This document shows positions 1 through 63,916 of a DNA stretch of 64,000 bases, piece after piece. The translations under genes and the position numbers were made by a program. The stretch's first letter is position 1, and each line of letters begins with the position of its first letter. The stretch is from assembly GCA_041641305.1 (NCBI GenBank), contig JBEPYN010000002.1, positions 638,666-702,665 of the forward strand, written 5' to 3'. The DNA comes from Nitrososphaerota archaeon. Lineage in GTDB: Archaea > Thermoproteota > Nitrososphaeria_A > Caldarchaeales > Caldarchaeaceae. The notes under the pieces are model-generated. The model was not told where the DNA came from. It saw only the letters and a list, made by a program, of their open reading frames with translations, and made no database searches.

Positions 1-10
1 GTTTTTCGTT

Positions 11-963
11 ATGCCGCATGACAGCAACGCGATTGGCAGGCTGCATGGCGGCGTGCTGATGGAGTGGATGGTTTCGGCGGCGGCCCTCTGCGGAGTCAGG
101 TTCAGCAAAGGCGAGGTGGTGTTGGCTGCTTTGGACGACCTCTTCTTCATGAACCCCGTATCCGTCGGCGACATGGTCGTGGTCAAAGCCTGGATAGAAT
201 ACGCGGGCCATTCATCGATGGAGGTCGGCGTGGCAGCCTATGCGTATCCGGGAATAGTCGGAGAACCGCGGCTCACCACCACCTCGCATATGGTTTTTGT
301 AGCGGTTGATAGAGCAGGCTCGCCGAGACCGCTGCCCACAAAAATCAAACCCACACGAGACGAGGAGCAGCTGTATTCCTTGGCAGAGAAACGGGCTGAG
401 AAAAGGAGAGGCATGCTCGCAGATAGAAAAACCGTGAGCCTTGACATCTCCGAGTATGGGCCCGACGCCCGCTTCAGGATGAAATCCTCACACCTCGTGT
501 CGCCGTCTGACGCAACCATGGGCGGAATAATGTCGGGTGGGAAGCTGCTGCATCTTCTCGACGAGATGGCTGGTGCTTTGGCTATCTCCTATGCGAAGAC
601 CGTGGCGGTAACAGGGTCCGTCGACTCCACAAGTTTCCACCACCCTATACGGCAGGGCAGCATCATAGATGTCGAGCTTGTTTTAACCGGAGTGGGCAGA
701 TCCTCCGCAGAGATTGCTGCAAAGGTTATAACGGAAAATCCATCCAGCGGCGTCAGAAGACACGCGGCCACAACATACTTCACCATGGTCGCCGTAGACT
801 CGGGGGAAAACCGGTGCCCATGCCGCCGTTTGAGCCAGCCAACGAAGGAGAGGAGAAGCGGCTAAAGGCGATGCAGGCTAGACGCGAGGCCAGACAGAGA
901 AGGTTTGAAGAGATACAGGCTTTTGAACCGCTGCACGAAGTGATAGGACATGGTAAAAGATGA
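11..963 (+). CDS. Double hot-dog acyl-CoA thioesterase; probably starts upstream of the window; apparent 1-nt frameshift at G5A4 (802-810)
   Basis: Two hot-dog repeats (GRLHGGVLM / GIMSGGKLLHLLDE). The -1 frame after 806 continues GKPVPMPPFEPANEGEEKRLKAMQARREAR to TGA 961-963, mirroring the tail of repeat 1. Confidence 0.8.
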
Positions 964-1939
964 GGAGCTCGGCCTATGCATCAGAAGCGTAGACCTTACC
1001 CCGCAGCAGTTCATCGAAGTAGCTAAACGCGCGGAGGAGCTGGGTTACAGCTCGCTCTGGATGACTGAGGAAATGGCACGTGCCTCACCGATAATGCTTA
1101 CGGCAGCCGCTCTCCACACCCGGCGGATAAAACTTGGAACAGCCATACTCAACATCTTCGCAAGAACACCCATGTCCACCGCCATGGAGGCAGCAACCCT
1201 CCAAGAACTCTCACAGGACCGTTTCATCCTAGGCCTCGGCGTAGGAGGCCCAGACATAACTCGCAGAGGACATGGAGCAGACATCTCCAACCCCGTGCAG
1301 AAAATGTCAGAATACATAGAGATAGTGAGAAAATTTCTCACAGGTGAGCGGCTTCAATACAGCGGCAGACACTACCGTGTCGACGGCGTCCGGCTCTGGC
1401 TAAAGAATCCTCGGCCCACCCAAATCTACGTAGCCGCACTAAACCCAGGGATGCTTACACTCGCCGGGGAAAAAGCAGACGGCTTAATTCTCAACCTCTT
1501 CGACCCACGCGCAGCCGACTACGTCAACAAATCAATAAACAAAGGCCTCAAAAACTCACACGACCCAAACAGGCCTTTCAAAAAAACATCATTTGTTTTG
1601 GCAGCTGCTTCAAGGAAACAGGATTCTCTCGCAGCTCTAAAGCGGTCTGTCGCATTCTACCTTAGCTCACCAGCTTATCGGAGAATAATGCGTGAAGCCG
1701 GACACAGAGATGCTGTTGAAAGATTTGCAGCAGCTTTGGAGACACGGGGCCGCGACGCCGCATTTGAGTCCCTAGACGAAGATGTAGTCGAAAGTGTGTC
1801 AATTTTCTGTGACGGAGACATCGGTGAGCAGCTGAAAAGATATCGTCAAGCAGAAGTTACGCCCATCATTTATCCGCAGCCCCGCCCAGGCAACGAGTAT
1901 CAAGACATAATGGCTATCGCTTCAGCGGCCGTCGAGTAA
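950..1939 (+). CDS. LLM-class (luciferase-like/Mer-like) flavin- or F420-dependent oxidoreductase
   Basis: AEELGYSSLWMTE, TRRIKLGTAI, RFILGLGVG, IYVAALNPGML..AGEKADG motifs. Confidence 0.85.
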   Translation: MVKDEELGLCIRSVDLTPQQFIEVAKRAEELGYSSLWMTEEMARASPIMLTAAALHTRRIKLGTAILNIFARTPMSTAMEAATLQELSQDRFILGLGVGGPDITRRGHGADISNPVQKMSEYIEIVRKFLTGERLQYSGRHYRVDGVRLWLKNPRPTQIYVAALNPGMLTLAGEKADGLILNLFDPRAADYVNKSINKGLKNSHDPNRPFKKTSFVLAAASRKQDSLAALKRSVAFYLSSPAYRRIMREAGHRDAVERFAAALETRGRDAAFESLDEDVVESVSIFCDGDIGEQLKRYRQAEVTPIIYPQPRPGNEYQDIMAIASAAVE

Positions 1940-1975
1940 ATCATTTAAATGATAGAACACGTTAGTACTATAGTA
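1940..1975 (+). promoter_or_regulatory. ppdK promoter: TATA (TTTAAA) inside perfect palindrome ATCATTTAAATGAT, plus palindrome TACTATAGTA at the start codon
   Basis: Palindromes at 1940-1953 and 1966-1975. TATA lies 25-30 nt before ATG 1975 (leaderless spacing). Confidence 0.55.
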
Positions 1976-51394: not shown

Positions 51395-52537
51395 TTGCCC
51401 CGCGACAGAAGATGGCTGCTTCTCTCATGGTTATTCGTCGACAGAATAGTCTACACCCTTAACTGGCTCGCAATCTCCCCCGCCCAACCCTTTCTCGCAA
51501 AAGAGCTGAACATCGGCCTCAGCGCGCTCGGAATACTCGGCACAGTTTTTCTCCTCGGTGTAGCTATTTTCCAGCTTCCCGCGGCGATTTTGGCCGCGCG
51601 TTATGGGGCAAAGAAGATAGCGTTGCTCGGGCTTTTTCTCTCCTCGTTTTTCGCGGGGTTGTGTGGCCTGGCCCCGGCTTTTGAGCATCTCCTAGTTCTC
51701 CGTTTCTTGACGGGTGTGTTTCTCAGTTTCTTCTTCGGGCCCGGCATCACGTTCTTCGCCCCTCTTTTCAGCACACGTGAAAGAGGAACAGCTGTCGGCG
51801 TCTATAACGCGGGTTTTCACACGGGGACGTTGGTGACGCTCGGTGTGTGGCCCACGGTGATGAGCCTGTATGGGTGGAGGCTTGGTTTACTTATTCCCGG
51901 TGTGGCTGGACTGTTGCTGGCTTTTGCTACTTACAGGGTGTCGAGATGGGTGGAAGACTCTGTTGACCCACATGGAATACATGTCTCAGCTATCGGAAAC
52001 AGGTTTGTTCTCTACTCTGCCCTCGGACTGGGGTTCGCTGGAGCCGCATGGTATCCGTTGACACAGTTCGGCATCCTATACCTAACAAGCGAGGCCAAGC
52101 TTGATGTGGGTGTTGCGGGTGCTATGGTTTCTGTGCTCTCACTGGGCAGTGTTGTTGGAGCACCGCTTTCCGGAAGGCTGTATGACAGGGCCCGAGACCG
52201 TAAGCGCCTCCTCTATCTCCTCAACCTATTCAACTCACTCTCCCTCGCGGCCTTCGCGCTCAGCCCCGTCCAAGCCATCATACCCATCGTTTTCCTAACA
52301 GGCCTCTTCTACACAGCCTCCAACAACCTCTACTATGTCACACCCATGATGGTTGTCAACCAGTCGGAGATCGCGGTAACCGTTGCAACCGTGAACATGG
52401 TGCATCTTTTCGCGGCCTCGGCCTTTCCGTATGTGTTTTCGGCTGTGGCTGAGGGCTGGGGATATTTCGCGGGATGGATGATGATGGTTTTTGTTAGTTT
52501 GTTGGCGGTGTTGTGTGTTTGGCGGATGAGGTTTTAA
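51395..52537 (+). CDS. MFS transporter
   Basis: 12-TM pattern, AARYGAKK motif A, ERGTAVG. Confidence 0.88.
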   Translation: MPRDRRWLLLSWLFVDRIVYTLNWLAISPAQPFLAKELNIGLSALGILGTVFLLGVAIFQLPAAILAARYGAKKIALLGLFLSSFFAGLCGLAPAFEHLLVLRFLTGVFLSFFFGPGITFFAPLFSTRERGTAVGVYNAGFHTGTLVTLGVWPTVMSLYGWRLGLLIPGVAGLLLAFATYRVSRWVEDSVDPHGIHVSAIGNRFVLYSALGLGFAGAAWYPLTQFGILYLTSEAKLDVGVAGAMVSVLSLGSVVGAPLSGRLYDRARDRKRLLYLLNLFNSLSLAAFALSPVQAIIPIVFLTGLFYTASNNLYYVTPMMVVNQSEIAVTVATVNMVHLFAASAFPYVFSAVAEGWGYFAGWMMMVFVSLLAVLCVWRMRF

Positions 52538-52566
52538 CCACTATGTAGTGGTGAAAGGGTTAAATA
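52537..52566 (+). promoter_or_regulatory. 7-2-7 palindrome ACCACTA-TG-TAGTGGT just upstream of BRE/TATA (TTAAATA)
   Basis: Palindrome 52537-52552; TATA 52560-52566; ATG 52589. Confidence 0.6.
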
Positions 52567-52588
52567 AAAACAACCACATCAAACAAAC

Positions 52589-53062
52589 ATGAACATCTTC
52601 GAGGAAGCCGAGGAGATAATGGAGAACGCCTTGGTCTCCTCCCTAAGCGTTGTAACACCCTCGGGGGAGGTGTTGACCAACCCGATGCTCCCCCTCTACA
52701 GCCGCAAACGCAAAAAACTCTACATGACATCCAGCATACTCTTCAGCAAGAAAATCAACTACATCAAAAAGAACCCAAGGGTCGGCGTGCTATTCAGCGG
52801 CCGACCATTCATCAAAACACCGAGATACTCCGCTCTCCACGTAAAAGGCGACGCAAAAGTCTACGAGGAAAACCTTCACAACGGCTGGGAATGGCTTGTG
52901 GAGCTATGGCGCGCCAAAGAACCATACATAGAGGCCTTCATCAAGCAGAGGGTTGCTCTGCCTCTTTTCTGGGAAAGAGCGGTGATCGAGATAGAGCCGA
53001 GAGAGATGCTGCTGTGGCCTGATGGCGATTTGTCTAAGGAGCCGCTGAGGTGGAGAGCATGA
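52589..53062 (+). CDS. PPOX-like split-barrel flavin/F420-binding protein
   Basis: LSVVTPSG..P, TS...SKK..IKKNPRVGVLF, VKGDAKV, IEIEP. Confidence 0.8.
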   Translation: MNIFEEAEEIMENALVSSLSVVTPSGEVLTNPMLPLYSRKRKKLYMTSSILFSKKINYIKKNPRVGVLFSGRPFIKTPRYSALHVKGDAKVYEENLHNGWEWLVELWRAKEPYIEAFIKQRVALPLFWERAVIEIEPREMLLWPDGDLSKEPLRWRA

Positions 53063-54381
53063 GCCTCGCAGCGGAGATCGAGAAATACAGTGACGTAGTC
53101 GTCTCCTACCTAGACGAAGACGGCTACCCGATGAGCTTCTCCACAACCGCGAGACAGAGCGACGGCAAACTCATCCTCGAAAAACCCCCACACATAAGCC
53201 CGCCCAAGAAAATAACAGTACTCCTAAACCACATAACCCCCCTCCCAACAGGAGGCTACACCGACAGAAGATACGTGATGATGAAGGGAGAGGCAGAGGC
53301 CGACGGCAACACAATAATCTTCAAGCCAACCAAGCAGTATGGCTGGGACGAGAAAACTAAACCATTTTTCCAATACTGTGAAGAAAGGGTTCCACAGGCG
53401 AAGAGTTATGTGACACGGTTGAGCGAGGCTTTGGGCAAGCAGGTCAAGCCTCGTCTCCCAACCCTCCAGCTCCTCTTCAGAGCGACACGGTTCCCATTCC
53501 TCACAGCAACCGCGGCACCCGTCCTCATGGGCGTAGGCACAGCAGCCTACCTCGGATACTTCGACCCACTCCTTTTCATCCTAACCCTGATAGGCGCGAG
53601 CCTGATACATCTCGCCCTCAACATGACCAACGACTACTACGACACAAAACTCGGAGCAGACCCCGCCAACATAACTCCAACACCCTTCAGCGGAGGCTCC
53701 CGAATACTTCACTACGGCCTAATGACACCGCGTCAACTACTATTACTAATCATACTCTTCTACGGCGCCGGCATAGCGATAGGCCTTTACCTCGCTTTTC
53801 TCAGGGGCCTCATCCCGATTCTGACGGTGATGGCAACAGGTGTCCTGATAAGCATCTTCTACACGGCTCCGCCTCTCAAGCTCGCCTACAGAGGTTTGGG
53901 CGAGGCCGCTGTCGGCATCGGCTTCGGACCAATAATCGTCCTCGGCAGCCACTATGTCCAGACACAGTTCTTCTCTCTCGAGGCCCTCGTCGCATCGATA
54001 CCCATAGGCATACTCATCATGCTCATTCTCTACGTCAACGAAATACCCGACGCACCATATGACAAAGCCGCCGGCAAACTCACATTGGTTACACGTCTCT
54101 CAAAAAAGGGCATGCTCAGAGGATACAAGGCATCTCTCGCGGCCGTCTACGTCGTGATGGTTGCAGCCGTATTGTTGAGGCTTGCTCCGCCAACAACCCT
54201 GATAGCCCTCGCAACAATCCCGAAAGCCGTCGCAACAGTTAGAAACGTTGCCCAGACATACGGCAACCCCTACCTAATGATTCCAGCCCTCGCCTCAAAC
54301 ATCAACGTCGCCACATTCACGGGACTTCTACACGCCGCAGGCTTCTTCCTCTGGGCGCTGATAAGCTACGTGATGGGCTAA
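53059..54381 (+). CDS. Fusion: split-barrel-like N-domain plus MenA/UbiA-family prenyltransferase
   Basis: N-terminal VSYLDEDGYP..KGEA..FKP; NDYYD, SGGSR, YTAPPLKLAYRGLGE, NEIPD..D..AGK.TL. ATGA overlap with previous gene. Confidence 0.85.
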   Translation: MSLAAEIEKYSDVVVSYLDEDGYPMSFSTTARQSDGKLILEKPPHISPPKKITVLLNHITPLPTGGYTDRRYVMMKGEAEADGNTIIFKPTKQYGWDEKTKPFFQYCEERVPQAKSYVTRLSEALGKQVKPRLPTLQLLFRATRFPFLTATAAPVLMGVGTAAYLGYFDPLLFILTLIGASLIHLALNMTNDYYDTKLGADPANITPTPFSGGSRILHYGLMTPRQLLLLIILFYGAGIAIGLYLAFLRGLIPILTVMATGVLISIFYTAPPLKLAYRGLGEAAVGIGFGPIIVLGSHYVQTQFFSLEALVASIPIGILIMLILYVNEIPDAPYDKAAGKLTLVTRLSKKGMLRGYKASLAAVYVVMVAAVLLRLAPPTTLIALATIPKAVATVRNVAQTYGNPYLMIPALASNINVATFTGLLHAAGFFLWALISYVMG

Positions 54382-54414
54382 ATCTATAAATCATATTGTT
54401 TGCAGACATTTTCT

Positions 54415-55491
54415 ATGGTTAAGAAAACTAGAGCAGGTAAACCCTCTTATGTAGGAACACTGCGTGGAAAAGATTTCCTCAACACCAACGACTTCACTCA
54501 GGAGCAGATTAACAACATTCTGAAGGCTGCTCGAGACCTGCGAGAAAAATTCCGGGCAAGGAAACCAACAGAGTATCTCAAGGGCCAGACGCTTTTCATG
54601 CTCTTCTACAACCGCTCCCTCCGCACGCGCAACAGCTTCGAGGCAGGCATCTATCAGCTGGGTGGTCACGCACATTTTCTCAGCCCATCAGACGTCTACA
54701 CGCCCACGCTGCCAGAAGACATGATACCATATCAGACAGAATCCATAGCTGACGTGGCCCGTGTTCTCAGCACATACGGCGACGCCATCGCCGTCAGGAT
54801 TTACGGCGACGCTGCGAAGTGGCACATCGGCAGGGGTCACCGGGTCATCCAAGAGTTCGCGAAATGGGCCACAATACCTGTCCTCAACATGGAGGATGAC
54901 ATATACCACCCGTTCCAAGCCCTCGCAGATATGATGGCTATACAGGATGTGGCCCCCAAGCCTCGGGGCAGGAAATTCGTCGTCTCCTACGCTTACTCAG
55001 GCGGCTTGAAGCCCCTCGCCGTGCCCCAGAGCTGCATACTCATAGGCACACAGTTCGCCATGGATGTCGTGCTCGCTCATCCACCGGGCTTCGAGCTCGA
55101 GGACCACGTCATAGAAGCATGCAGAAAAAACGTGGAACAATACGGCGGCTCCTTCACCATCACACATGACATGAAAGAAGCCTTCGAGGGAGCTGACTTT
55201 GTCTATCCAAAAGCCTGGTCGCCGCGGAAGTTCTTCCCACCATATAACTCGGCCGTGGACAAGGAGGGGGCCATGAAGTATCAGGACCAGTTCAAGAGCT
55301 GGATATGCACACCCGAGCTCATGGATTTGACCAACAGAGGTAAGTATATGCACTGCGGCCCCGCCGACAGAGGTCAGGAGGTTGTTGACGAGGTCATAGA
55401 CAGCCCCAGCTACTCGCTCTACTTCCAGCAGGCGGAGAACAGGCTGCATGTCCAGAAGGCGGTTATGTCGATGACGATGGGGAGAAGATGA
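54415..55491 (+). CDS. YgeW-like (knotted-type) carbamoyltransferase 1
   Basis: SLRTR, HPFQALAD, YAYS..KPLAVPQ, YPKAW, YMHCGPAD; TATAAA at 54385-54390. Confidence 0.85.
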   Translation: MVKKTRAGKPSYVGTLRGKDFLNTNDFTQEQINNILKAARDLREKFRARKPTEYLKGQTLFMLFYNRSLRTRNSFEAGIYQLGGHAHFLSPSDVYTPTLPEDMIPYQTESIADVARVLSTYGDAIAVRIYGDAAKWHIGRGHRVIQEFAKWATIPVLNMEDDIYHPFQALADMMAIQDVAPKPRGRKFVVSYAYSGGLKPLAVPQSCILIGTQFAMDVVLAHPPGFELEDHVIEACRKNVEQYGGSFTITHDMKEAFEGADFVYPKAWSPRKFFPPYNSAVDKEGAMKYQDQFKSWICTPELMDLTNRGKYMHCGPADRGQEVVDEVIDSPSYSLYFQQAENRLHVQKAVMSMTMGRR

Positions 55492-56516
55492 GAACCGGCG
55501 AAGACATCCTCGACCTCATAGGCAACACGCCGCTGCTACGTCTCCGCCAAATAGAGAAACAACATGGGGTGGATGCCGAGATATGGGCTAAGCTCGAGTT
55601 CTACAACCCATCCGGCAGCCTAAAAGACCGCATATACCGCGAGATGATAACGAAAGCCATCGAGAGGGGCGACCTGAGGCCCGGCATGGAGATTCTCGAG
55701 GTCTCGACAGGCAACGCGGGGATCGCATGCACCTTTGTCGGCACACATCTTGGTTACAAGGTTACCATCGTAATGCCCGAGGGAATGAGTGAGGAGAGGA
55801 AACAGCTCATAAGAGCGTTCGGCGGCAACCTCGTCTTCACACCCGGCGCAGAGTCTGACGTGGACCTCAGCCTAAGAAAAGCCGAGGAAATGATGCGGCA
55901 GAACCCGCGCAAATACTGGTTCCCCAACCAGTTCACAAACCCCGACAACATCCAAGCACACATCAAAACCACCGGCCCAGAGATATGGGAGCAGACAAAG
56001 GGCAAGGTTGATGCTTTCGTGATGTCGCAGGGCTCCGGCGGAACAGTAAGCGGCGTCGGAAAATTCCTCAAGGAAAAAAAGCCGAGCGTAAAGATATACA
56101 CAGTTGAGCCAAGCGAGGCACCCATCATCAGCGAAGGCAAATGGGGCTCGCACAAAATCGAGGGCATAGGAGACGGCTTCATACCACGCAACCTCGACCT
56201 CGGAGTATGCGACGGAGTTGTCACAACAACCTCCGACGAGGCAATTGCGATGGCCAAGCAGCTCGCACGCCTCGAGGGAATATTCGGCGGAATATCCTCG
56301 GGATGCAACGTCGCAGCCGCGGTCAAAGTCGCAAAAAAGCATCCAGAGCTCCGGAAAATAGTGACACTGATATGCGACTCGGGAAACAGATACCTCTCAA
56401 CGGAGTTGTATGGTGAGGGTAAGAAAACAGTTGTCCCCGAGCGTGAGCACCCCCTCGACGAATACACGAAAACCGTCAGGGAGAAACATTTGCACCGTCT
56501 CGAGATAATAAGGTGA
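55488..56516 (+). CDS. PLP-dependent cysteine synthase family (fold II) enzyme
   Basis: KLEFYNPSGSLKDR, STGNAG, NQF, GSGGT, HKIEGIG. Confidence 0.9.
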   Translation: MRTGEDILDLIGNTPLLRLRQIEKQHGVDAEIWAKLEFYNPSGSLKDRIYREMITKAIERGDLRPGMEILEVSTGNAGIACTFVGTHLGYKVTIVMPEGMSEERKQLIRAFGGNLVFTPGAESDVDLSLRKAEEMMRQNPRKYWFPNQFTNPDNIQAHIKTTGPEIWEQTKGKVDAFVMSQGSGGTVSGVGKFLKEKKPSVKIYTVEPSEAPIISEGKWGSHKIEGIGDGFIPRNLDLGVCDGVVTTTSDEAIAMAKQLARLEGIFGGISSGCNVAAAVKVAKKHPELRKIVTLICDSGNRYLSTELYGEGKKTVVPEREHPLDEYTKTVREKHLHRLEIIR

Positions 56517-57021
56517 GCATGTTATAGCGGGGTTCGAATACGACGAAGAGCATGGAACTGTCCAAGACCCTGTACTCGGAGGCAGGGTTCTTGTGCTGTC
56601 TGGGAGGCTTTTCGCTGAGATGAGGGTTCTTCTCTCTTACTCTATGTCGGGGCCCGCGGTGGACACCCTGTTGTGGCACATCGGAAACAAATATGGTGTG
56701 GCGTTGGGCAGGAGAACAAAGAAGATGTCGAAAACTCCGGGGGATGCTGTGGAGCTTTTGGCGAAGGCGGCTCAAAGGTCGGGCTGGGGCAAGATAACGG
56801 TCGACAACAAATTCGAAACGGCTGGTGAGATGGTGGTATTCTTCGAGGACTGTGTCTTCTGCGAGGGCGTGGTCGGCGAAAAAACACCCGCCTGCAGTTT
56901 TCTATCAGGTATTCTCGCTGGTATAGGGGAGGAGATATACGGCGGAAGTGTAGTGGCTCGGGAGGAGCTTTGCAGAGGTGTGGGTGACAGCCTCTGCCGC
57001 TTCAGGATAACAAAGGTGTAG
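56512..57021 (+). CDS. V4R small-ligand-binding domain protein; start ambiguous (first canonical start GTG 56593)
   Basis: GWG, C.FC, ACSFLSGILAG, E..CRG.GD..CRF. The frame stays open and coding-like back to 56512. Confidence 0.8.
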   Translation, partial: GEHVIAGFEYDEEHGTVQDPVLGGRVLVLSGRLFAEMRVLLSYSMSGPAVDTLLWHIGNKYGVALGRRTKKMSKTPGDAVELLAKAAQRSGWGKITVDNKFETAGEMVVFFEDCVFCEGVVGEKTPACSFLSGILAGIGEEIYGGSVVAREELCRGVGDSLCRFRITKV

Positions 57022-57025
57022 AGGC

Positions 57026-58270
57026 TTGTTTGTCGAAAAAATGGTCTGCTCAAGATGTGGAACAGAATACAGCCCATCCATCAACCCAATCCTCTGCAGA
57101 AACAACGACAACGGCCGCCTAGACATCTTCTACGACCTTGACCGCGTTGCCGGGTCATTCACCAAGTCCTCTATTGAGAAACGTCCGCCGAACGGTGTTT
57201 GGCGCTACTGGGAGCTCATGCCCGTCGACCAGCGTTATGCTTCTCCTCTGAAAGAGGGTAACACGCCTCTGCTCCATGCCCAACGGCTCGGCGAAGAACT
57301 TGGCGTCAAGAAGCTTTTCCTCAAGGATGAGACACGTAATCCCACGGCTTCTTTCAAAGACCGTGCGATGGCTGTTGGCGCCGCGAAGGCTGTTGAAATG
57401 GGTAGGAGGGATGTGGTCATCGCCTCGAGCGGTAACGCGGCATCTTCTCTGGCCGCTTACAGCGCCTCTCTTGGTCTACGGTGCACAGCCTTTGTACCAG
57501 AAGATGTTGCCATCGGAAAGGCCTCGCAGCTTCTGCTTTATGGTGCGAGAGTTCTCCGGGTCAAGCAGGTGGAGGAGGGACGTGACCCAACTGTAGACCT
57601 GATGATGCAGACAGTGAGAGAGCTTGGCTGGTATCCCTGCCCAAGCTTCGGCGCCTTCAACCCCTACCAGGTCGAGGGCCCCAAAACCATCGTCTATGAA
57701 ATGGTTGAGCAAATGGGCTGGAATGTTCCCGACTTTGTCTTCATACCCACAGGCTCAGGATGCCTCGCCACAGGAATATGGAAAGCGTTGAAAGAGATGC
57801 ATCAGCTCGGCTTAATCGAGAGCTATCCCAAGATGGTGCCTGTCCAGCCCACTGGTAACATGCCCCTCGTGAGAGCAATTCTTCAGGGGAAAAAGTTTGA
57901 GGAGATAGAGCCGGAGAAATGGCCCAAATCTATTGCGTCAGGTCTTCTCGACCCATATCCTTGGGACGGTGACGCGGCGATGGCGGGTGTGAGGACAACA
58001 GGTGGCACGGCCGCTGCCGTCGAAGAGTATGAGATTAGAGAGGCTGTAAAGAGGCTGGCCCGTCTTGAAGGGGTTTTTGCCGAGCCATCAGGCGCCGTCG
58101 GAGTGGCCGCTGTCCAGAAACTCCTTGATCAAGGGGTTGTAGAAGCCTCGGACACGGTGGTTGTTCTGGTGACTGCCTCGGGGCTGAAAGAACCGGAGAA
58201 AGTTGCCTCCACAGCCGAGCTTCCGCTCATACGCCCCTCTCTGAGTGAGCTGAAGAAGTATTTATCATAG
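57026..58270 (+). CDS. Threonine synthase-like PLP enzyme (fold II)
   Basis: N-terminal CxxC, EGNTPL, KDETRNPTASFKDR, ASSGN, PTGSG, AEPSGA. Confidence 0.88.
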   Translation: MFVEKMVCSRCGTEYSPSINPILCRNNDNGRLDIFYDLDRVAGSFTKSSIEKRPPNGVWRYWELMPVDQRYASPLKEGNTPLLHAQRLGEELGVKKLFLKDETRNPTASFKDRAMAVGAAKAVEMGRRDVVIASSGNAASSLAAYSASLGLRCTAFVPEDVAIGKASQLLLYGARVLRVKQVEEGRDPTVDLMMQTVRELGWYPCPSFGAFNPYQVEGPKTIVYEMVEQMGWNVPDFVFIPTGSGCLATGIWKALKEMHQLGLIESYPKMVPVQPTGNMPLVRAILQGKKFEEIEPEKWPKSIASGLLDPYPWDGDAAMAGVRTTGGTAAAVEEYEIREAVKRLARLEGVFAEPSGAVGVAAVQKLLDQGVVEASDTVVVLVTASGLKEPEKVASTAELPLIRPSLSELKKYLS

Positions 58271-58287
58271 AGAAAACAGGATTCGCC

Positions 58288-59244
58288 ATGAACAGAAGCG
58301 AGCTCATCGTTGTGGCTCTCGGTGGAAATGCGCTTCTGAGACGCGGTGACAAGGGCACTTTTGAGGAGCAGTATAGAAACGTCGGCAACGCGGCAAAGTA
58401 TCTCGCAGACATCGTCGAAGCAGGCCATCGACTAGTCATCACCCACGGCAACGGCCCACAGGTCGGAGCCACTCTTCTCCGCCACGACGCCGGTCAAAAG
58501 CTGCACAACATACCCGCCTTCCCCATGGATGCCTGCGGAGCAGAGACACAGGGCTTCATAGGCTACATCATACAGCAAAACCTCCGCAACGAGCTCAAGC
58601 GACGCGGCATCGACAAATACGTCATAACCGTCGTGACACGTGTAATCGTCGACAAAAACGACCCAGCGTTCAACAACCCAACCAAACCCATCGGCCCATT
58701 CTACAAAAAAGAAGAGATGGAGAAAATCAAGGCAGAGCACCCTGAATACATCTTTGTCGAGGACAAGGCACGAGGAGGCTGGAGAAGAGTGGTGCCGTCA
58801 CCCGACCCAAAAATCATCGCCGAGAGACATGCGATAAGGAAGCTTGTTGACGAAGGGTTCATAGTTGTGGCAAGCGGCGGAGGCGGAATACCGATAGTTG
58901 AAGAAAACGGCAAAGCATATGGAGTGGAGGCTGTAATCGACAAAGACCTCGCCGGCGAGAGGCTCGCCGAATTAATCGGGGCGGACCGGTTCATCATTCT
59001 GACGGATGTCGACGGAGCCTACCTAAACTTTGGAAAACCCGACCAGAAGAAGCTGGAGAAAGTGTCAGCGGCTGAGGCGAGGCGCTACCTCGAGCAGGGA
59101 CATTTCGGCTCAGGCTCGATGCTTCCCAAGGTGTTGGCTTGCATTAGGTTCATCGAGGCAGGCGGCAAAGAGGCAGTGATTGCCGAGCTTTCTCAATTTA
59201 AAGAAGCTTTGAAAGGCTCGGCGGGAACCCACTTTATTCCCTAA
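58288..59244 (+). CDS. arcC: Carbamate kinase
   Basis: ALGGNAL, THGNGPQVG, PTKPIGP, RRVVPSP, GGGGIP, EAVIDKD, GSMLPK. Confidence 0.96.
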   Translation: MNRSELIVVALGGNALLRRGDKGTFEEQYRNVGNAAKYLADIVEAGHRLVITHGNGPQVGATLLRHDAGQKLHNIPAFPMDACGAETQGFIGYIIQQNLRNELKRRGIDKYVITVVTRVIVDKNDPAFNNPTKPIGPFYKKEEMEKIKAEHPEYIFVEDKARGGWRRVVPSPDPKIIAERHAIRKLVDEGFIVVASGGGGIPIVEENGKAYGVEAVIDKDLAGERLAELIGADRFIILTDVDGAYLNFGKPDQKKLEKVSAAEARRYLEQGHFGSGSMLPKVLACIRFIEAGGKEAVIAELSQFKEALKGSAGTHFIP

Positions 59245-60260
59245 ATTTTTCCAGCCACCAAAGAAAGTATAGCCGCTCTTACATAAAGTAGGTTCTCGGC
59301 CTGGTCATAGATAACGCTTCGCGGCCCATCCATGACATCGTCGTCAGCCTCCTGTCCACGGAACACGGGGAGCACATGCGTCACTATACCATGCCGCGAC
59401 ATGAGGTCTGTCAACTCACGTGTAAGCTTCCAATCCCTGTATTTATTGTGCAACTCGATTTCTCTTTCCCGGCCGAACCTGTTCATCCCCGTGATTACGC
59501 ATTCGTGGCTTGCCCAGCTTCGTGGAAAAACTGCATCCGCGTTCTCGAGAGCCTCTTTGTAGCTGTGGCTGATGGTCAGGGAGCCGCCGCTCTCTTCAGC
59601 ATTTTTCTTAGCGAGCTTCACAAGGTTCTCGTCTATGTCGAAGCCGGGGGGATAAGCGAGGACAACATCCATACCGTAACGTGTGGCTATCAGCATCTCA
59701 TCCTGTATGCTTCCCCAGCTCCGGACCTTGTCGCTATAAGCCCACATCAAAACATACTTCTTCTTCTCAACACGTCCCAGCTTCTCCCGCAAGGTGTAGA
59801 GATCTGTGATGGCCTGGCTCGGGTGAAACATGTCGTCAGCCATGTTGATGACAGGGATTTTCGCATGCTCGGCATATTCTCTGATGACAGCGTTCCCCCT
59901 CCCATAAACATAGTCCACAGCTGACTCCAGTATCCTTACGCCGAGGACGTGGCCCAGCCTCTCATACATCTTGGCTATGTCTTTTACAGATTCGCCTTCG
60001 GCGCCTCGGGTGGTTGCGAAGTCGATGAACTGTGCATGGCCTCCGAGCATGGTTGCAGCGGCCTCGAAGCTGGCCCGCGTTCGCGTGCTGGTGTTGTAGA
60101 AGAGCATGAACATGGTCCTGTTCTTGAAAAGCTCGGGAACGTTTCCAGCCGCCCTCGCTATCTTCAGGCTCCGCGCCAAATCCATCGCCGCATCAATTTC
60201 CTCAATACTCCAGTCCTGCGAAGAAATCAGGTCCCTACCATAAAGCTCCGTCAGAGTCAT
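59241..60260 (-). CDS. YgeW-like carbamoyltransferase 2 with HVLP in place of HCLP
   Basis: STRTR, GRGNAVIRE, HPSQAITD, MWAYS, FPRSW, THVLPVFRG, QAEN. Confidence 0.85.
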   Translation of the reverse strand: MTLTELYGRDLISSQDWSIEEIDAAMDLARSLKIARAAGNVPELFKNRTMFMLFYNTSTRTRASFEAAATMLGGHAQFIDFATTRGAEGESVKDIAKMYERLGHVLGVRILESAVDYVYGRGNAVIREYAEHAKIPVINMADDMFHPSQAITDLYTLREKLGRVEKKKYVLMWAYSDKVRSWGSIQDEMLIATRYGMDVVLAYPPGFDIDENLVKLAKKNAEESGGSLTISHSYKEALENADAVFPRSWASHECVITGMNRFGREREIELHNKYRDWKLTRELTDLMSRHGIVTHVLPVFRGQEADDDVMDGPRSVIYDQAENLLYVRAAILSLVAGKI

Positions 60261-60314
60261 AATCACATCGATTCAGACGGCAATTTATACATCGCGTTCC
60301 ACCAGACCTTATCT

Positions 60315-60719
60315 TTACGCCTCTTCAGGGGAGGATGTGCCGCGGCCTAAAATGTTGAACGCATCCTTCAGAACCACATCTCTCCCAATAGCCTCCATAG
60401 CCAAAGGCGTCTTCAGCCTTCTCTGCCTCTCAAACTCGCGAAGCGTCAAGGGTATTATCTCGAGACTTGGAAATTTTTTCAAAACCTCCACGACCTGCTC
60501 AAACCTGTTAAGAGGATTTGGATCAAACCTTGGGGACACCACAAGTAGGTCTACATCGCTCCACTGGTTAAAGTCTCCTCTCGCATATGAGCCAACCACT
60601 GCCGCGGAAACAGGGCCCACAATCTTTTCAACCAACCTAACAGCTTCCGCAGCTGCTGCAACAGCCATCCTCCTCATCATCTCTCTTTCCTCAACAACTC
60701 CCATCTCATCCTCACCCAA
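60315..60719 (-). CDS. Minimal nucleotidyltransferase (MNT)
   Basis: GSYARGD..WSDVDLLVV. Confidence 0.9.
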   Translation of the reverse strand: MGEDEMGVVEEREMMRRMAVAAAAEAVRLVEKIVGPVSAAVVGSYARGDFNQWSDVDLLVVSPRFDPNPLNRFEQVVEVLKKFPSLEIIPLTLREFERQRRLKTPLAMEAIGRDVVLKDAFNILGRGTSSPEEA

Positions 60720-61087
60720 CCCAAAACATTCTCAGCCCTCTTAATGGCCTCGGCCGCCTCATTTTCAGAAAAATATTCCTCGGGCATGCCCGATTCCCAG
60801 ACATCAGGATACCTTGTAGAAGTGTAGTATTTGTCGAGCCTCAAACAGTCTTCAAGAATTTTCTCGTCACCGCCGGCTATGCTTTCCAAAGCTTCATACA
60901 GTTTTTTGAGGCTGTGGCCGTAGCGTGGGTTGCCACAACCCCAGAGAAGTGCTTTCAATGCCTTTTCGGCTGCCTGATGCGATTTGAAGCATGCCCAGTT
61001 ATAGTCTCCAGCCTTTAGGTCTTTCACGGCTGAGTTTAGGGTTGTTGAAGCGCTTGCCATCCATCTACTGTATTCTTCTTCGTCCAC
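60677..61087 (-). CDS. HEPN domain protein (HEPN-MNT pair)
   Basis: WACFKSHQAAEKALKA, GHSL, LDKYY..TRYPD. Confidence 0.9.
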   Translation of the reverse strand: MDEEEYSRWMASASTTLNSAVKDLKAGDYNWACFKSHQAAEKALKALLWGCGNPRYGHSLKKLYEALESIAGGDEKILEDCLRLDKYYTSTRYPDVWESGMPEEYFSENEAAEAIKRAENVLGWVRMRWELLRKER

Positions 61088-61139: not shown

Positions 61140-63464
61140 TTACTGTCGGTTTTTGTGAAGTTCTTCAAGCACTCGTTGAGGTGTGAGCGGGAGCTCGCGT
61201 ATGTAGACGCCTGTGGCGTTTGCAACGGCTGCTGCTATCGAGGCAGCTGGGAGAACTACGGGTATCTCTCCCATGGCTTTGGCTCCGAAGACACCTATGC
61301 TGCCCTTAACCTCGACGATGATGCTGCGGATTTCTTCGGGGGCGTCTGAGGCAGTTGGGATGACGTATGTGTGCAGGTTTGGGTTGATGACGACGCCGTC
61401 GTCGTGGACAATCTTCTCCATCAACGCATATCCCTGGCCCATGATGCTTCCCCCCTCGTAGACAGCGATCAGCCCCAGCGGGTTTATCGCGCGGCCCACA
61501 TCGTATGCGGCGGTTAGCCTATCCACCCTGACCACACCTGTCTCGGTGTCCACTGTTACCTCGGCGACGAGTGCACCGTAGGTGTACTGGTTGTATGGTG
61601 CTCCCTGACCTGTCTCAGGGTCCCACTTGGTCGACGGAGCCAAGTAGTAGCCGACCGCCCGGAGCGAAAGATTCTCCTCGAAACACTGGTTGACCACCTC
61701 ATGCCAGGACACCGACCTTCCGTTAGCCGTCACCAAGCCATCCCTAAACTCTAGGTCAGATGGATTGGCTGAGAGCATTTTGGCGGCGACTTGTGCAACT
61801 GTTGCCCTTATTTTGAGCGCTGCGTCGAGGGCTGCCTGGCCGCCTATTACGGTTGTCCGGGATGCGACGGTGGGCCCTGCGTTGGGGACGGCCGCTGTGT
61901 CCGGTCTCTCAAGCCTAACCATGGAGAGTGGAAGCCCGAGTGTTTCGGCGGTGACTATGGCGAGTGATGTCAGGGCCCCTGTTCCGTATTCGGTTAAACC
62001 TGTTTGGACAACGACTTTTCCGTCTCTCTCGACGTAGGTGACTACTGTTGCGAAGTCGTCGCCCTCTGGTCCGAGGGTGTTGCCGTGGTAGAGCATCGCT
62101 ATCCCGATGCCTTTTTTCAAGACCTTGTTCAATCTGTTAAACTCCTGTATCTCTTTTACACGTTTCTCCCACTCGCTTGCCTCGACTGCTTTTTGGTAAC
62201 ATTTCAGGAGGCCGTCGTCTTCGATTTTCTGACTTGTTGATGTGAGAGAGCCGGGACGGAGCATGTTCATCTCACGTATCTCGAGGGGTGTGAGGCCAAG
62301 CTCCTCCGCAAGCTCGTTCATCACCGTCTCGGCTGCGAAATGTGCCTGCGGTGCCCCGAAGCCACGTGTCGAGCCTGCCATCGTGTTGTTGGTGAGGACG
62401 CAGTAGCCGTCGGCCCAGACATTCGGGACCTCATATGGTCCTGTGCAGTGGAACGTGGCTCGTCCGATGACGAGGTGTCCCTTGGAGATGTATGCTCCCG
62501 TGTCCTCTAATAGTGTTGACTTCCAGGCCAAAAGTTTCCCATCATTCCTGGCTCCAACCATGTTTGTTATCTCGAAGGGGTGGCGTTTGCACTGGACCGT
62601 CATGGCTTCGCTGCGGGTGAACGCGGCGAGAGCAGGCTTTCCCGTGTAATATGTTGCGAGACATGCATATGCCGCCACGTCTATCGGTGTTTCGTCGCTT
62701 TTTGGGCCAAAGCCTCCGCCGGTGGCCGCTTGGATAACGCGGAGCCTGTCACCGGGTACACCGAGTATCTTTACCGCTTTGTTGTATACATCGTAGAGGT
62801 TCTGCATCGAGGATATACACGTTATCTTTCCATCCGGCTCCATGAAAGAGTAGGCTATCTCTATCTCGAGGGGTAGGCCTGTGATGAACTGTGTGCGGTA
62901 TGTTCGCTCGATGATGACGTCGGATTCTCTGAACCCTTTCTCCACGTCACCTTTTCTTATCTTGAAGTGTGTGACCACGTTGTCCCTGTCCTGTATTCTT
63001 GGGGCGTCGGGCTTCATGGCTTCGCGTGGGTTGGTTACAACGGGGAGTGGGTCGTAGTCGACTTCTACATGTTCAGCCGCTTCCTCCGCATCCTCCAGAC
63101 TCTCCCCAACCACGAGAGCAACAGCCTCCCCGATATGTCTAACCTTTTCATAAGCCAGCAGGGGTCTATCGCTTATCAGGCTTCCCGCATCGTTCACGCC
63201 TGGTATGTCACGGTGTGTGAGCACCTTGACGACACCTTTTCTAGATGCGGCTGGAGATGTGTCTATTTTCCTTATGTAGCCGTGGGGAACCTTGGAGCGC
63301 ACGGCTTTGACGTAGAGAGTTTTTCCTGAGACGAGGTCGGCTGTGTAAAGTGGTTTGCCGAGGACCGCGTCGAGAGCGTCAACACGTGCAACCTTCTTCC
63401 CGACTATGAGGAACTCGCGGGCCTCGATAATCTCCCTGAAACGTCTAGCTATCTCCTCGCTCAT
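61140..63464 (-). CDS. Xanthine dehydrogenase family molybdopterin-binding subunit
   Basis: GGGFGPK, KRHP, RGFGAPQ, TVASR, GRAINP, KAMGE. Confidence 0.92.
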   Translation of the reverse strand: MSEEIARRFREIIEAREFLIVGKKVARVDALDAVLGKPLYTADLVSGKTLYVKAVRSKVPHGYIRKIDTSPAASRKGVVKVLTHRDIPGVNDAGSLISDRPLLAYEKVRHIGEAVALVVGESLEDAEEAAEHVEVDYDPLPVVTNPREAMKPDAPRIQDRDNVVTHFKIRKGDVEKGFRESDVIIERTYRTQFITGLPLEIEIAYSFMEPDGKITCISSMQNLYDVYNKAVKILGVPGDRLRVIQAATGGGFGPKSDETPIDVAAYACLATYYTGKPALAAFTRSEAMTVQCKRHPFEITNMVGARNDGKLLAWKSTLLEDTGAYISKGHLVIGRATFHCTGPYEVPNVWADGYCVLTNNTMAGSTRGFGAPQAHFAAETVMNELAEELGLTPLEIREMNMLRPGSLTSTSQKIEDDGLLKCYQKAVEASEWEKRVKEIQEFNRLNKVLKKGIGIAMLYHGNTLGPEGDDFATVVTYVERDGKVVVQTGLTEYGTGALTSLAIVTAETLGLPLSMVRLERPDTAAVPNAGPTVASRTTVIGGQAALDAALKIRATVAQVAAKMLSANPSDLEFRDGLVTANGRSVSWHEVVNQCFEENLSLRAVGYYLAPSTKWDPETGQGAPYNQYTYGALVAEVTVDTETGVVRVDRLTAAYDVGRAINPLGLIAVYEGGSIMGQGYALMEKIVHDDGVVINPNLHTYVIPTASDAPEEIRSIIVEVKGSIGVFGAKAMGEIPVVLPAASIAAAVANATGVYIRELPLTPQRVLEELHKNRQ

Positions 63465-63916
63465 CTTCTTCTCACCTGTTTAAAGGCCTCTTCAAACCGT
63501 AAATAGCTGCCGCATCTACACAGCACGCTTCTGAGAGTATGTCTAATCTCCTCGCTGTCGGCGTCCGGGTTTGTGTCGTAGAGGTGTTTGAGGACGAGAA
63601 GGGCTGCTGGTATGCAGAAGCCGCACTGGACCGCGCCAAGGTCTATGAATGCTTGTTGAAGTGGGTGAAGCCGTGAGCCGTCCCCCATGCTCTCCACTGT
63701 CTTAATCTTGTGTCCCGAAGCTTGGTAAGCAAGCACCAGACATGAGTTGACAGGCTTGCCGTCGAGCAAAACTATGCATAGGCCACAGTCCCCAACTCCA
63801 CACCCCTCCTTAACGCTGACAAACCCCAGCTTCCCGCGGAGAACATCACTCAACCTCTCATGTGGCTCGACATCGACAACATATTTCACATCATTAACCT
63901 CGAGCTCAGCCCTCAT
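63461..63916 (-). CDS. Xanthine dehydrogenase family 2x[2Fe-2S] subunit
   Basis: GCGVGDCGLC..NSCL, QCGFC, CRCG. Confidence 0.95.
   Translation of the reverse strand: MRAELEVNDVKYVVDVEPHERLSDVLRGKLGFVSVKEGCGVGDCGLCIVLLDGKPVNSCLVLAYQASGHKIKTVESMGDGSRLHPLQQAFIDLGAVQCGFCIPAALLVLKHLYDTNPDADSEEIRHTLRSVLCRCGSYLRFEEAFKQVRRR

Follow-up and report, generated by a model that had tools for sequence, protein, structure and literature searches.

The 64,000-nucleotide stretch of DNA analysed here (the window), from a hot-spring archaeon (Ca. Caldarchaeum), raises the question of why two divergent carbamoyltransferases, CT1 and CT2, should be encoded next to genes for a carbamate kinase, two PLP enzymes and a molybdenum enzyme, and which reactions they might catalyse. 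The features on which the answer depends are the following:

54383..54392, + strand: TATA-like box ATCTATAAAT, within the 33-nt gap upstream of CT1
54415..55491, + strand: CT1, carbamoyltransferase of an uncharacterised knotted-group clade (Pfam OTCace_N + OTCace)
55488..56516, + strand: CysK-like fold-type-II PLP enzyme, an extra paralogue (TIGR01139, 368 bits), 4-nt overlap with CT1
56593..57021, + strand: V4R-domain protein (small-molecule-binding or regulatory domain) in the CT1 operon (Pfam V4R, 51 bits)
57026..58270, + strand: extra ThrC-like paralogue, a fold-type-II PLP enzyme whose N-terminus bears a Cys-rich motif (NF006050, 322 bits)
58288..59244, + strand: carbamate kinase, end of the CT1 operon, convergent and overlapping with CT2 (TIGR00746, 431 bits; cut-off 358)
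59241..60260, - strand: CT2, carbamoyltransferase of a second uncharacterised knotted-group clade (Pfam OTCace_N + OTCace)
60315..61087, - strand: nucleotidyltransferase (60315-60719) and HEPN (60677-61087) pair, named by reading the translations, without HMM search
61140..63464, - strand: Mo subunit of a xanthine-dehydrogenase (XDH)-family enzyme (Pfam Ald_Xan_dh_C, MoCoBD_1, MoCoBD_2)
63461..63916, - strand: 2Fe-2S subunit of the same XDH-type enzyme

The CT1, CysK-like, V4R, ThrC-like and carbamate kinase genes thus follow one another on one strand, and CT2 lies on the other as the final gene of the XDH operon. The open reading frame of CT1 (54400-55491, +) opens at a TTG (54400), and the internal ATG at 54415 is probably the real start, because of the TATA-like box and because the closest homologues have 350-358 aa; archaeal promoter geometry suggests a leaderless transcript from near this ATG. 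For CT2 (open reading frame 59241-60266, -, opening at GTG 60266), the ATG at 60260 gives a protein of 339 aa, the length of its closest homologues. The coordinates and motif strings that an earlier note had quoted for both genes are all present in the sequence: SLRT, YAYSGGLKPLAVPQ, YPKAW and HCGP in CT1, and STRT, WAYSDKVRSWGSIQ, FPRSW and HVLP in CT2. The first motif reads SLRTR in full in CT1 and STRTR in CT2, and the proteins further contain HPFQ and HPSQ, respectively.

In a phylogenetic tree, CT1 and CT2 (38% identical to each other) form clades of their own, with support values of 98/94 and 97/99, respectively. Both lie outside the OTC group and the AOTC clade (support 100/99; NF003384, the AOTC model, gives 371-428 bits for five proteins of that clade), and both score below the curated cut-offs of all NCBIfam models. 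Judged by their sequences, they are neither OTC, AOTC nor YgeW proper, and represent separate, old clades within the knotted AOTC/YgeW group; the prediction of new specificities, distinct from those of OTC and AOTC, agrees with this placement outside the characterised clades. They are extra to the housekeeping transcarbamylases, because a canonical OTC (DVFVSMG, HCMP) and a canonical PyrB are encoded elsewhere in the genome. As had also been noticed, the DxxxSMG loop of OTC is absent from both; YPKAW and FPRSW align with DVFVSMG of the genome's own OTC and with YPKSW of E. coli YgeW.

The description of the pair as "YgeW-like" is apt only in part. The motifs that the note gave for YgeW are correct (E. 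coli YgeW has WAYSPSYGKPLSVPQ, YPKSW and HCLP), CT1 shares with it (W/Y)AYS..KPLxVPQ and YPK[AS]W, and the YgeW clade is placed weakly beside CT1 (support 63/35). However, identity to E. coli YgeW is only 32%, both proteins score 143-159 bits on the YgeW models (143-148 for CT1) against cut-offs of 453-500, and they lack the extra insertions and C-terminal tail of YgeW. Their top sequence or fold matches are AOTC for both proteins or, for CT2, the OTC of P. furiosus (5e-53, compared with 3e-48 for AOTC). Among solved structures, X. campestris AOTCase (PDB 3kzc/3kzk) is the best sequence match of CT1 (1e-63) and also the top fold match of its AF2 model (pLDDT 96.3; TM 0.85); the CT2 model has a pLDDT of 97.2. 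Similar length, an extended 120's loop and AENRLHVQKA near the C-terminus are features in common with this AOTCase, as are the long 80's loop and the KPL proline-rich loop of CT1, whereas in CT2 the 80's loop is short and OTC-like and the "proline-rich" loop contains no prolines.

Given these resemblances, CT1 and CT2 might be taken for ordinary arginine-pathway isozymes, as is implied by their public names ("ornithine carbamoyltransferase" or "N-acetylornithine carbamoyltransferase") and by the score of CT1 on NF003384, its best NCBIfam model (283.8 bits, slightly below the cut-off of 288; CT2 reaches 223.7 bits). Such an identity is hardly credible, being contradicted by the tree, by the missing DxxxSMG motif, by the Thr and Glu that CT1 carries at the AOTC-defining positions Glu92 and Lys302, by a gene context in which arginine genes are absent and by the separate canonical OTC.

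Both proteins are likely to be active, since the residues that bind carbamoyl phosphate (SxRTR, the Arg of xRI, HPxQ and H..P) are invariant among the ~120 cluster representatives of each family, which argues for selection on both as enzymes. In the CT1 family, SLRTR, HPFQ, YPKAW and HCGP are each found in 120/120 representatives and YAYSGGLKPLAVPQ in 116/120; in the CT2 family, STRTR occurs in 117/117, FPR[SNG]W in 116/117 and HVLP in 114/117, with HVMP in the remaining 3. On these alignments the motifs are fixed family traits, reflecting neither chance nor decay, and the earlier suggestion that one chain might be non-catalytic runs counter to them. An altered HCLP motif had been claimed for both proteins, and both do differ from the HCLP of E. 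coli YgeW. The HCGP of CT1 does break the superfamily motif HxLP (Leu to Gly), but the HVLP of CT2 remains within it, because the second residue of this motif is variable (PMC4581275).

The functions of the two enzymes might best be approached through the genes with which they travel. Position 64000 is the end of both the window and contig C2, and the XDH operon resumes on contig C4 with the FAD subunit, an SsnA-like amidohydrolase and an F420-dependent LLM reductase; a further part, with an adenine deaminase and a Bmp-type ABC transporter, is found at the end of contig C3. The same gene order is unbroken in loci L006-L014. Synteny of the XDH subunits, LLM reductase, SsnA-like amidohydrolase, CT2, carbamate kinase, ThrC-like, CysK-like and CT1 genes extends across 80 loci in at least five archaeal lineages, the cluster being conserved in Caldarchaeales, Nitrososphaerales, Bathyarchaeia, Asgard and Desulfurococcaceae and flanked by adenine deaminase and a Bmp purine/nucleoside-type ABC transporter. 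Carbamate kinase, a single tblastn match and the sole copy in the genome, is beside CT2 or CT1 in 40/80 of the related loci. The ThrC-like gene (three further copies in the genome, 32-37% identity) is syntenic with CT1/CT2 in 40 loci, and the CysK-like gene (a second copy at C2:78673, 37% identity) adjoins CT1 or the ThrC-like gene in Caldarchaeales, Nitrososphaerales, Bathyarchaeia and Desulfurococcaceae. The V4R gene occupies this position in Caldarchaeales loci only. The nucleotidyltransferase/HEPN pair between CT2 and the XDH genes is an insertion outside the pathway; the nearest relative (L005) has only part of it, and other Caldarchaeum loci lack it, their Mo subunit gene directly adjoining CT2.

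The best NCBIfam model for the Mo subunit is XdhA (509 bits vs a cut-off of 780), and for the cluster amidohydrolase SsnA (360-376 bits). The reductase is exchanged among lineages, an F420 LLM enzyme in some and a DHO_dh+Fer4 (PreA/UacX-like) enzyme in others; the alternatives in the bacterial pathway include UacX, an F420 luciferase-family enzyme and YgfK (PMC12507026). Clusters of the Nitrososphaerales contain a hydantoinase (TIGR02033, 475 bits; cut-off 393). That of the present genome is at C1:35918, on another contig and beside a different XDH, and its lack of linkage to the Caldarchaeum cluster is a point against the reading that we prefer below. Within the 99.3% complete genome, no orthologue was found of YgeY (top score 96 bits vs a cut-off of 321) or YgeX (36 vs 274), and the CysK-like enzyme is a candidate for the YgeX-type step. 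The cluster corresponds to the reductive urate (2,8-dioxopurine) pathway of bacteria, in an archaeal version that lacks both YgeX and the hydrolase YgeY.

Co-occurrence was assessed across 400 Thermoproteota genomes with a completeness of 80% or more. CT1 is present in 44/400 and CT2 in 41/400, and all 41 genomes with CT2 also have CT1; SsnA-like genes (E<=1e-85) were detected in 38/41 of the CT2-positive genomes and 0/359 of the others, although the genomes counted are related (six families), so that the independence of the observations is overstated. Genomes G017 and G018 carry the CT1/CT2 pair, with no SsnA-like gene found at E<=1e-85, another point against the reading preferred below. Of five cases in which CT2 occurs in a different context, four have CT1 at another place in the genome, and both genes are present in the cultured Thermosphaera aggregans.

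Strict co-occurrence (41/41) speaks for a mixed CT1/CT2 trimer or higher oligomer, which would catalyse one reaction at interface active sites built from both chains; in transcarbamylases the active site is indeed formed between subunits, and the neighbouring chain contributes its 80's loop (PMC4581275), and this loop is 9 residues longer in CT1 than in CT2 in the alignment. Such an assembly is nonetheless unlikely. The solved members of the family are all homotrimers or multiples of these (PMC4581275), and each chain has the full catalytic set, leaving no apparent degenerate partner. Moreover, the genes here are in separate convergent transcription units, are separated by 26 kb to 640 kb in closed genomes of Desulfurococcaceae and are unlinked in some Nitrososphaeria, and Hadarchaeota loci pair CT2 with an OTC-type gene in place of CT1.

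We prefer the explanation, to which we give a probability of roughly 0.55, that both CT1 and CT2 are active in catabolism, each phosphorolysing a different ureido group and passing carbamoyl phosphate on to carbamate kinase. The direction and order of the two reactions, their substrates and the gain in ATP are inferred, the substrates and the catabolic direction from gene context. The XDH-type Mo enzyme, the F420-dependent reductase, the SsnA-like ring-opening amidohydrolase and a hydantoinase would generate a C3 skeleton with two ureido groups (2,3-diureidopropionate or its precursor). One of these groups might be phosphorolysed by CT2, co-transcribed with the XDH genes, and the other by CT1, co-transcribed with the two PLP enzymes and carbamate kinase; the latter would convert both carbamoyl phosphates to ATP, and the CysK-like and ThrC-like enzymes would remove the leftover diaminopropionate-type product. 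The earlier idea of two enzymes acting in sequence agrees with the conservation of this purine-catabolic cluster and with the strict co-occurrence.

The nearest functional analogue is YgeW (YTCase) of E. coli, likewise a knotted-group transcarbamylase beside a carbamate kinase, YqeA, and clustered with an XDH-type Mo enzyme, a reductase, SsnA and a hydantoinase (PMC12507026; bioRxiv 10.1101/2025.04.24.650524). YgeW and YqeA produce ATP from 2,3-diureidopropionate (bioRxiv 10.1101/2025.04.24.650524), the kind of catabolic role proposed for CT1 and CT2. In the bacterial pathway, YgeW takes off one ureido group by phosphorolysis, to carbamoyl phosphate, and YgeY hydrolyses the other. Two studies disagree on which of the groups is the target of YgeW (PMC12507026; bioRxiv 10.1101/2025.04.24.650524), so that the reference reaction is itself in dispute, which counts against the preferred reading. 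Unlike the E. coli system, the archaeal cluster has two transcarbamylases, CysK-like and ThrC-like PLP partners and an F420 LLM or UacX-like reductase in place of YgfK. The same logic of ureido phosphorolysis followed by carbamate kinase is known for catabolic OTC (arginine deiminase pathway), putrescine transcarbamylase (agmatine deiminase pathway) and the ureidoglycine transcarbamylase of Rubrobacter (PMC4016543), but each of these systems employs one unknotted OTC/ATC-branch enzyme, whereas here two knotted-group enzymes would serve one purine pathway. Counting against two phosphorolyses, generic M20 peptidases encoded elsewhere in the genome could hydrolyse one of the ureido groups.

The two enzymes might instead serve different branches or steps, both catabolic and both feeding carbamate kinase, which we regard as possible though rather improbable. 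For example, one of them could act on a ureido compound derived from purines while the hydantoin ring is still closed (5-ureidomethylhydantoin), or one could act on a pyrimidine-derived N-carbamoyl-beta-amino acid and the other on the purine-derived one. The separate transcription units, with CT2 among upper-pathway genes and CT1 beside the PLP enzymes and carbamate kinase, are consistent with such a division, as are the unlinked Caldarchaeum hydantoinase and the dihydropyrimidinase-type, PreA-type (dihydropyrimidine-dehydrogenase-like) and class-III aminotransferase genes of some clusters, three enzyme types that also serve reductive pyrimidine breakdown. The near-perfect co-occurrence of CT1, CT2 and SsnA-like genes argues for a single pathway, however, and purines are the substrates to be expected from the XDH, adenine deaminase and SsnA-like genes.

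The direction of carbamate kinase bears on a further alternative. CarB is absent from this genome and from 15/16 genomes of the family, and the single carbamate kinase may be at least partly anabolic, supplying OTC and ATC, which counts against the catabolic reading; carbamate-kinase-type synthesis of carbamoyl phosphate is known in Thermococcales (PMC6022934). CT1 and CT2 would then carbamoylate unusual amines to ureido amino acids, for example diaminopropionate or diaminobutyrate from the CysK-like and ThrC-like enzymes. Antibiotic pathways do include transcarbamylases for these two amines (PMC4581275), and SbnA-type CysK homologues make diaminopropionate precursors (the present CysK-like protein scores 207 bits on TIGR03945). 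We consider an anabolic module very unlikely. Biosynthesis offers no role for the XDH, SsnA-like, reductase, adenine deaminase and purine-type transporter genes to which the pair is tightly linked across lineages; the loss of CarB does not track the CT pair (genera g13 and g15 have neither, g5 and g6 have both); and the known diaminopropionate and diaminobutyrate transcarbamylases are members of the unknotted OTC branch and have TRWQ and HDLP motifs.

If the preferred reading of two catabolic phosphorolyses is true, this archaeon would probably gain ATP from both ureido groups of a degraded purine, where gut bacteria gain it from only one.

The 1.66-Mb Candidatus Caldarchaeum assembly from which this DNA derives (99.3% complete) encodes four transcarbamylases: a canonical ornithine transcarbamylase (OTC), a canonical PyrB, and the two proteins CT1 and CT2 considered here, which are 38% identical to each other. 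Both of the latter contain the Pfam domains OTCace_N and OTCace, at 114-139 bits per domain, and their genes are placed as follows.

54400-55491, plus strand: open reading frame of CT1, likely start ATG at 54415
59241-60266, minus strand: open reading frame of CT2, likely start ATG at 60260

The start chosen for CT1 is likely because of the TATA-like sequence ATCTATAAAT at 54383-54392 and the length of the close homologues (350-358 amino acids), and that for CT2 because its close homologues are 339 amino acids long.

An earlier note on this DNA had described the two proteins as a divergent YgeW-like pair, each with an altered HCLP motif. All of the motif strings quoted there for CT1 and CT2 occur in the sequences, the motifs it gave for YgeW are those of the E. 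coli protein (WAYSPSYGKPLSVPQ, YPKSW and HCLP), and when the pair is aligned to E. coli YgeW and to the OTC of this genome the DxxxSMG loop of OTCs is indeed absent, with YPKAW in its place in CT1 and FPRSW in CT2. The unusual motifs are fixed traits of two families: SLRTR, HPFQ, YPKAW and HCGP are each found in 120/120 cluster representatives of the CT1 family, and STRTR and HVLP in 117/117 and 114/117 representatives, respectively, of the CT2 family. As for the altered HCLP, the second residue of the superfamily motif, HxLP, is free (PMC4581275), and for this reason HVLP of CT2 conforms and only CT1 departs from it, through a Leu-to-Gly change seen in all 120 relatives. Even a genuine OTC can differ in the third residue: the genome's canonical enzyme (L001, positions 916-1986 of that locus) has HCMP rather than HCLP. 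The carbamoyl-phosphate motifs SxRT and HPxQ are kept in CT1 (SLRTR/HPFQ) and CT2 (STRTR/HPSQ) and are invariant in both families. With the catalytic motifs thus retained on both sides, we reject the suggestion of the earlier note that one of the chains might be a non-catalytic subunit.

The scores of CT1 and CT2 against curated family models fall below every relevant cut-off. The best NCBIfam model for both is that of N-acetylornithine transcarbamylase (AOTC, NF003384), on which they reach 283.8 and 223.7 bits, respectively, against a cut-off of 288; the OTC model TIGR00658 gives 228.8 and 203.6 bits against 280.85. Among solved structures, the nearest to CT1 is the AOTCase of X. campestris (1e-63) and the nearest to CT2 is the OTC of P. 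furiosus (5e-53), followed by AOTCase, while the YgeW structure is matched at ~1e-37 by either protein. A tree was built from 86 sequences, namely the two families together with relatives retrieved by searching 1.8 billion representatives, YgeW of E. coli, and OTC and PyrB of the source genome. In this tree AOTC, YgeW, CT1 and CT2 form one group apart from the OTCs (support 100/99), and the pair does not fall inside the characterized OTC and AOTC clades. The AOTC clade (100/99), five members of which score 371-428 bits on NF003384, includes neither CT1 nor CT2; these form clades of their own, supported at 98/94 and 97/99, respectively. The YgeW clade is separate and weaker (89/31), and stands weakly beside CT1 (63/35).

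AOTCases are defined by Glu92, Asn185 and Lys302 (X. campestris numbering) together with an arginine-biosynthesis context (PMC4581275). The CT1 residues aligned to Glu92 and Lys302 are Thr and Glu, and the neighbors of CT1 and CT2 are purine-catabolic rather than arginine genes. Ordinary membership in the OTC or AOTC families is ruled out by the model cut-offs, the tree and the AOTC-defining residues; the idea that CT1 and CT2 are simply isozymes of these enzymes is contradicted by every test and can hardly be credited. The proposed likeness to YgeW holds for the catabolic context, which CT1 and CT2 have in common with YgeW-type enzymes (a place beside a carbamate kinase in a purine cluster with SsnA, the ring-opening amidohydrolase, and a xanthine-dehydrogenase-family enzyme, XDH). 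It does not extend to the proteins themselves, which score 143-159 bits on YgeW models with cut-offs of 453-500, form clades separate from YgeW and lack, in the alignment, its specific insertions and 19-residue tail. By the defining features of those families, then, the sequences of CT1 and CT2 place them outside YgeW, AOTC and OTC alike. The public names of their relatives are ornithine carbamoyltransferase, N-acetylornithine carbamoyltransferase or hypothetical protein.

The AlphaFold (AF2) models of both proteins are confident (pLDDT 96.3 for CT1 and 97.2 for CT2). For CT1 the best superposition is with AOTCase (TM 0.85); the fold does not assign a subfamily, because CT2 superposes about equally on P. 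furiosus OTC, AOTC and the YgeW-type protein of E. faecalis (TM 0.86-0.87). In knotted transcarbamylases (AOTC, SOTC and YTC) the 120's loop is extended and a further loop is rich in proline (PMC4581275). The latter corresponds to KPLAVP in CT1 and to DKVRSWGSIQ, without proline, in CT2, whose Foldseek TM-scores do not tell a knotted fold from an unknotted one.

In the source genome CT1 heads a tight plus-strand operon, in which it overlaps by 4 nt a gene for a CysK-like PLP enzyme, followed by genes for a V4R protein, a ThrC-like PLP enzyme and a carbamate kinase (431 bits), the only one in the genome. Both PLP enzyme genes are additional paralogues. CT2 converges on this operon from the minus strand, as the last gene after those for the Mo and 2Fe-2S subunits of an XDH. 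Beyond the end of the window, which is also a contig end, the CT2 operon was traced by comparison with homologous loci that are unbroken in sister genomes. It continues on the 3.5-kb contig C4, where the XDH FAD subunit is accompanied by an F420-dependent LLM oxidoreductase and by an amidohydrolase that matches the SsnA model best (360 bits, below the cut-off of 444), and at the end of contig C3 with a Bmp-type ABC transporter and an adenine deaminase that exceeds its model cut-off (521 bits). A D-hydantoinase (456 bits, above cut-off) adjoins another XDH at position 35918 of contig C1.

Several further features of the locus may be recorded. The V4R protein (142 amino acids; 56593-57021, plus strand) separates the two PLP enzyme genes in no lineage other than Caldarchaeales, and may sense a ligand on behalf of the operon. 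Directly upstream of CT1 (51395-54381, plus strand) are genes for an MFS transporter, a PNPOx-like split-barrel protein and a split-barrel/UbiA-MenA prenyltransferase fusion, a trio that keeps this position in all Caldarchaeales loci (L005-L022) and not in other lineages. A toxin-antitoxin-like nucleotidyltransferase/HEPN pair, named from the translations, forms an insertion that separates CT2 from the gene for the XDH Mo subunit (60315-61087, minus strand); in other Caldarchaeum loci the two genes adjoin directly. A second set of genes, at the start of C3 (positions 1-4500), may represent a second N-heterocycle pathway. It encodes a Mo-hydroxylase large subunit truncated to its C-terminus, a paralogue of the F420 LLM enzyme with 48% identity to the cluster copy, and two amidohydrolases, one SsnA/chlorohydrolase-like and one deaminase-type.

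Comparison of 80 loci with CT2 relatives, by tblastn and clustering of ORFs, found recurring versions of the cluster. In Caldarchaeales the order is LLM enzyme, SsnA-like protein, XDH (FAD, FeS, Mo) and CT2, with carbamate kinase, ThrC-like, CysK-like and CT1 on the opposite strand. In Nitrososphaerales CT1 is followed by CysK-like, ThrC-like, XDH, CT2, a permease, the LLM enzyme, an SsnA-like protein (376 bits), a hydantoinase (475 bits, above cut-off), a deaminase-type amidohydrolase and carbamate kinase, and in Bathyarchaeia by carbamate kinase, CT2, ThrC-like, CysK-like, an amidohydrolase and a Bmp transporter. In Desulfurococcaceae and certain others the LLM enzyme gives way to a DHO_dh plus 4Fe-4S protein of the PreA/UacX type. 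The reductase of the bacterial reductive urate pathway is similarly exchanged among YgfK, UacX and an F420 luciferase-family enzyme (PMC12507026), of which the last two are the types seen in the archaeal clusters. Other arrangements exist. Two Hadarchaeota loci (L063, 2210-3229; L064, 6770-7807) have CT2 followed by an OTC-type transcarbamylase rather than CT1, and the nearest representative of that gene, P0261, exceeds the TIGR00658 cut-off with 292 bits. In a subgroup of Nitrososphaeria (L026, L033, L037-L047 and L074) CT2 lies in a different conserved neighborhood, with a MoCF-biosynthesis domain, Trm112, UDP-glucose dehydrogenase, an amine oxidase and a radical SAM protein, and CT1 stands elsewhere, beside MFS transporter and SufBD genes.

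In a sample of 400 Thermoproteota genomes at least 80% complete, in which the carriers belong to six families and the counts are not independent events, CT2 orthologues were found in 41 genomes and CT1 orthologues in 44, the latter including 41/41 of the CT2-positive genomes. SsnA-like genes (E<=1e-85) were detected in 38 genomes, all among the 41 with CT2, and in 0/359 of the others. CT1 was present elsewhere in the genome in 4/5 Nitrososphaeria with CT2 in an unrelated neighborhood. The pattern is clear despite the kinship of the carriers. Two Caldarchaeales genomes (G017 and G018, locus L093) have CT1, CT2, carbamate kinase, both PLP enzymes and hydantoinase, with no SsnA-like gene at E<=1e-85. 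The co-occurrence of CT1 and CT2 would be compatible with a mixed trimer of the two, but we consider this quite improbable, given that the two genes belong to separate transcription units, lie 26 to 640 kb apart in closed genomes and each encode a full catalytic set, and that the transcarbamylase family consists of homotrimers throughout.

Of the parts of a reductive urate cluster, the source genome has the XDH subunits (Mo and FeS in the window, FAD on C4), an LLM F420 reductase (also on C4), an SsnA-like protein, a hydantoinase and a carbamate kinase. In the pathway of E. coli and Clostridium sporogenes urate undergoes two reductions, the first of which gives 2,8-dioxopurine; YgeW removes one ureido group by phosphorolysis and YqeA makes ATP from the resulting carbamoyl phosphate, YgeY hydrolyses the other ureido group, and YgeX deaminates diaminopropionate to pyruvate (PMC12507026; bioRxiv 10.1101/2025.04.24.650524), the two reports disagreeing on which ureido group is taken by YgeW. 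The archaeal cluster has the upper half of this pathway plus carbamate kinase; it differs in having two transcarbamylases for YgeW and YgeY, and two fold-type-II PLP enzymes for YgeX. Genome-wide searches found no orthologue of YgeY, an M20 ureidohydrolase (best 96 bits against 321, TIGR03526), or of YgeX, a diaminopropionate ammonia-lyase (best 36 bits against 274, TIGR01747).

CT1 and CT2 are, in our view, quite likely both active catabolic enzymes of this purine pathway. The simplest reading, to which we assign a probability of roughly 0.55, is that each would remove one ureido group by phosphorolysis, in the manner of YgeW with YqeA, so that the harvest of carbamoyl phosphate would be doubled. 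The differences of CT2, including the second residue of HxLP, suggest a target different from that of CT1. We think it rather unlikely that the two serve different steps or branches, one acting before ring opening or on a pyrimidine-derived N-carbamoyl-beta-amino acid.

The large subunit of carbamoyl-phosphate synthetase, CarB (TIGR01369, PF02787), was not found in the source genome or in 15/16 genomes of its family, despite the presence of canonical OTC and PyrB in the former. The cluster carbamate kinase, as the sole one in a genome without CarB, may therefore also be an anabolic source of carbamoyl phosphate. The same two facts might be taken to mean that the module as a whole is anabolic, which appears very unlikely to us: loss of CarB does not track the CT pair, there being genera with both and genera without both, and the purine-catabolic partner genes would be left unexplained.

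A literature search found no paper on an archaeal version of the pathway or on the CT1 and CT2 clades. To our knowledge the bacterial 2,8-dioxopurine pathway was solved only in 2025, and for bacteria only. The phosphorolytic reading of CT1 and CT2 would extend it, with another lower half, to archaea of several phyla, and the analysis defines two uncharacterized transcarbamylase clades of hundreds of members each, uniformly mis-annotated as ornithine or N-acetylornithine carbamoyltransferase. More tentatively, and at somewhat less than even odds, many archaea (cultured Desulfurococcaceae, and uncultured Caldarchaeales, Bathyarchaeia, non-ammonia-oxidizing Nitrososphaeria and Asgard lineages) might practice a reductive purine fermentation of higher energy efficiency, in which two dedicated, anciently diverged transcarbamylases would remove both ureido groups and so yield two carbamoyl phosphates and two ATP per purine; in lineages without CarB, such as this Caldarchaeum, the same module could also provide carbamoyl phosphate for arginine and pyrimidine synthesis. 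Both genes occur in a cultured organism with a closed genome, Thermosphaera aggregans DSM 11486 (CT1, ADG90586.1; CT2, ADG90564.1), which makes the phosphorolytic reading testable there and with thermostable recombinant enzymes. The predicted doubling of the ATP yield from purine fermentation would bear on the energy economy of archaea that grow slowly on necromass in the subsurface and in hot springs.
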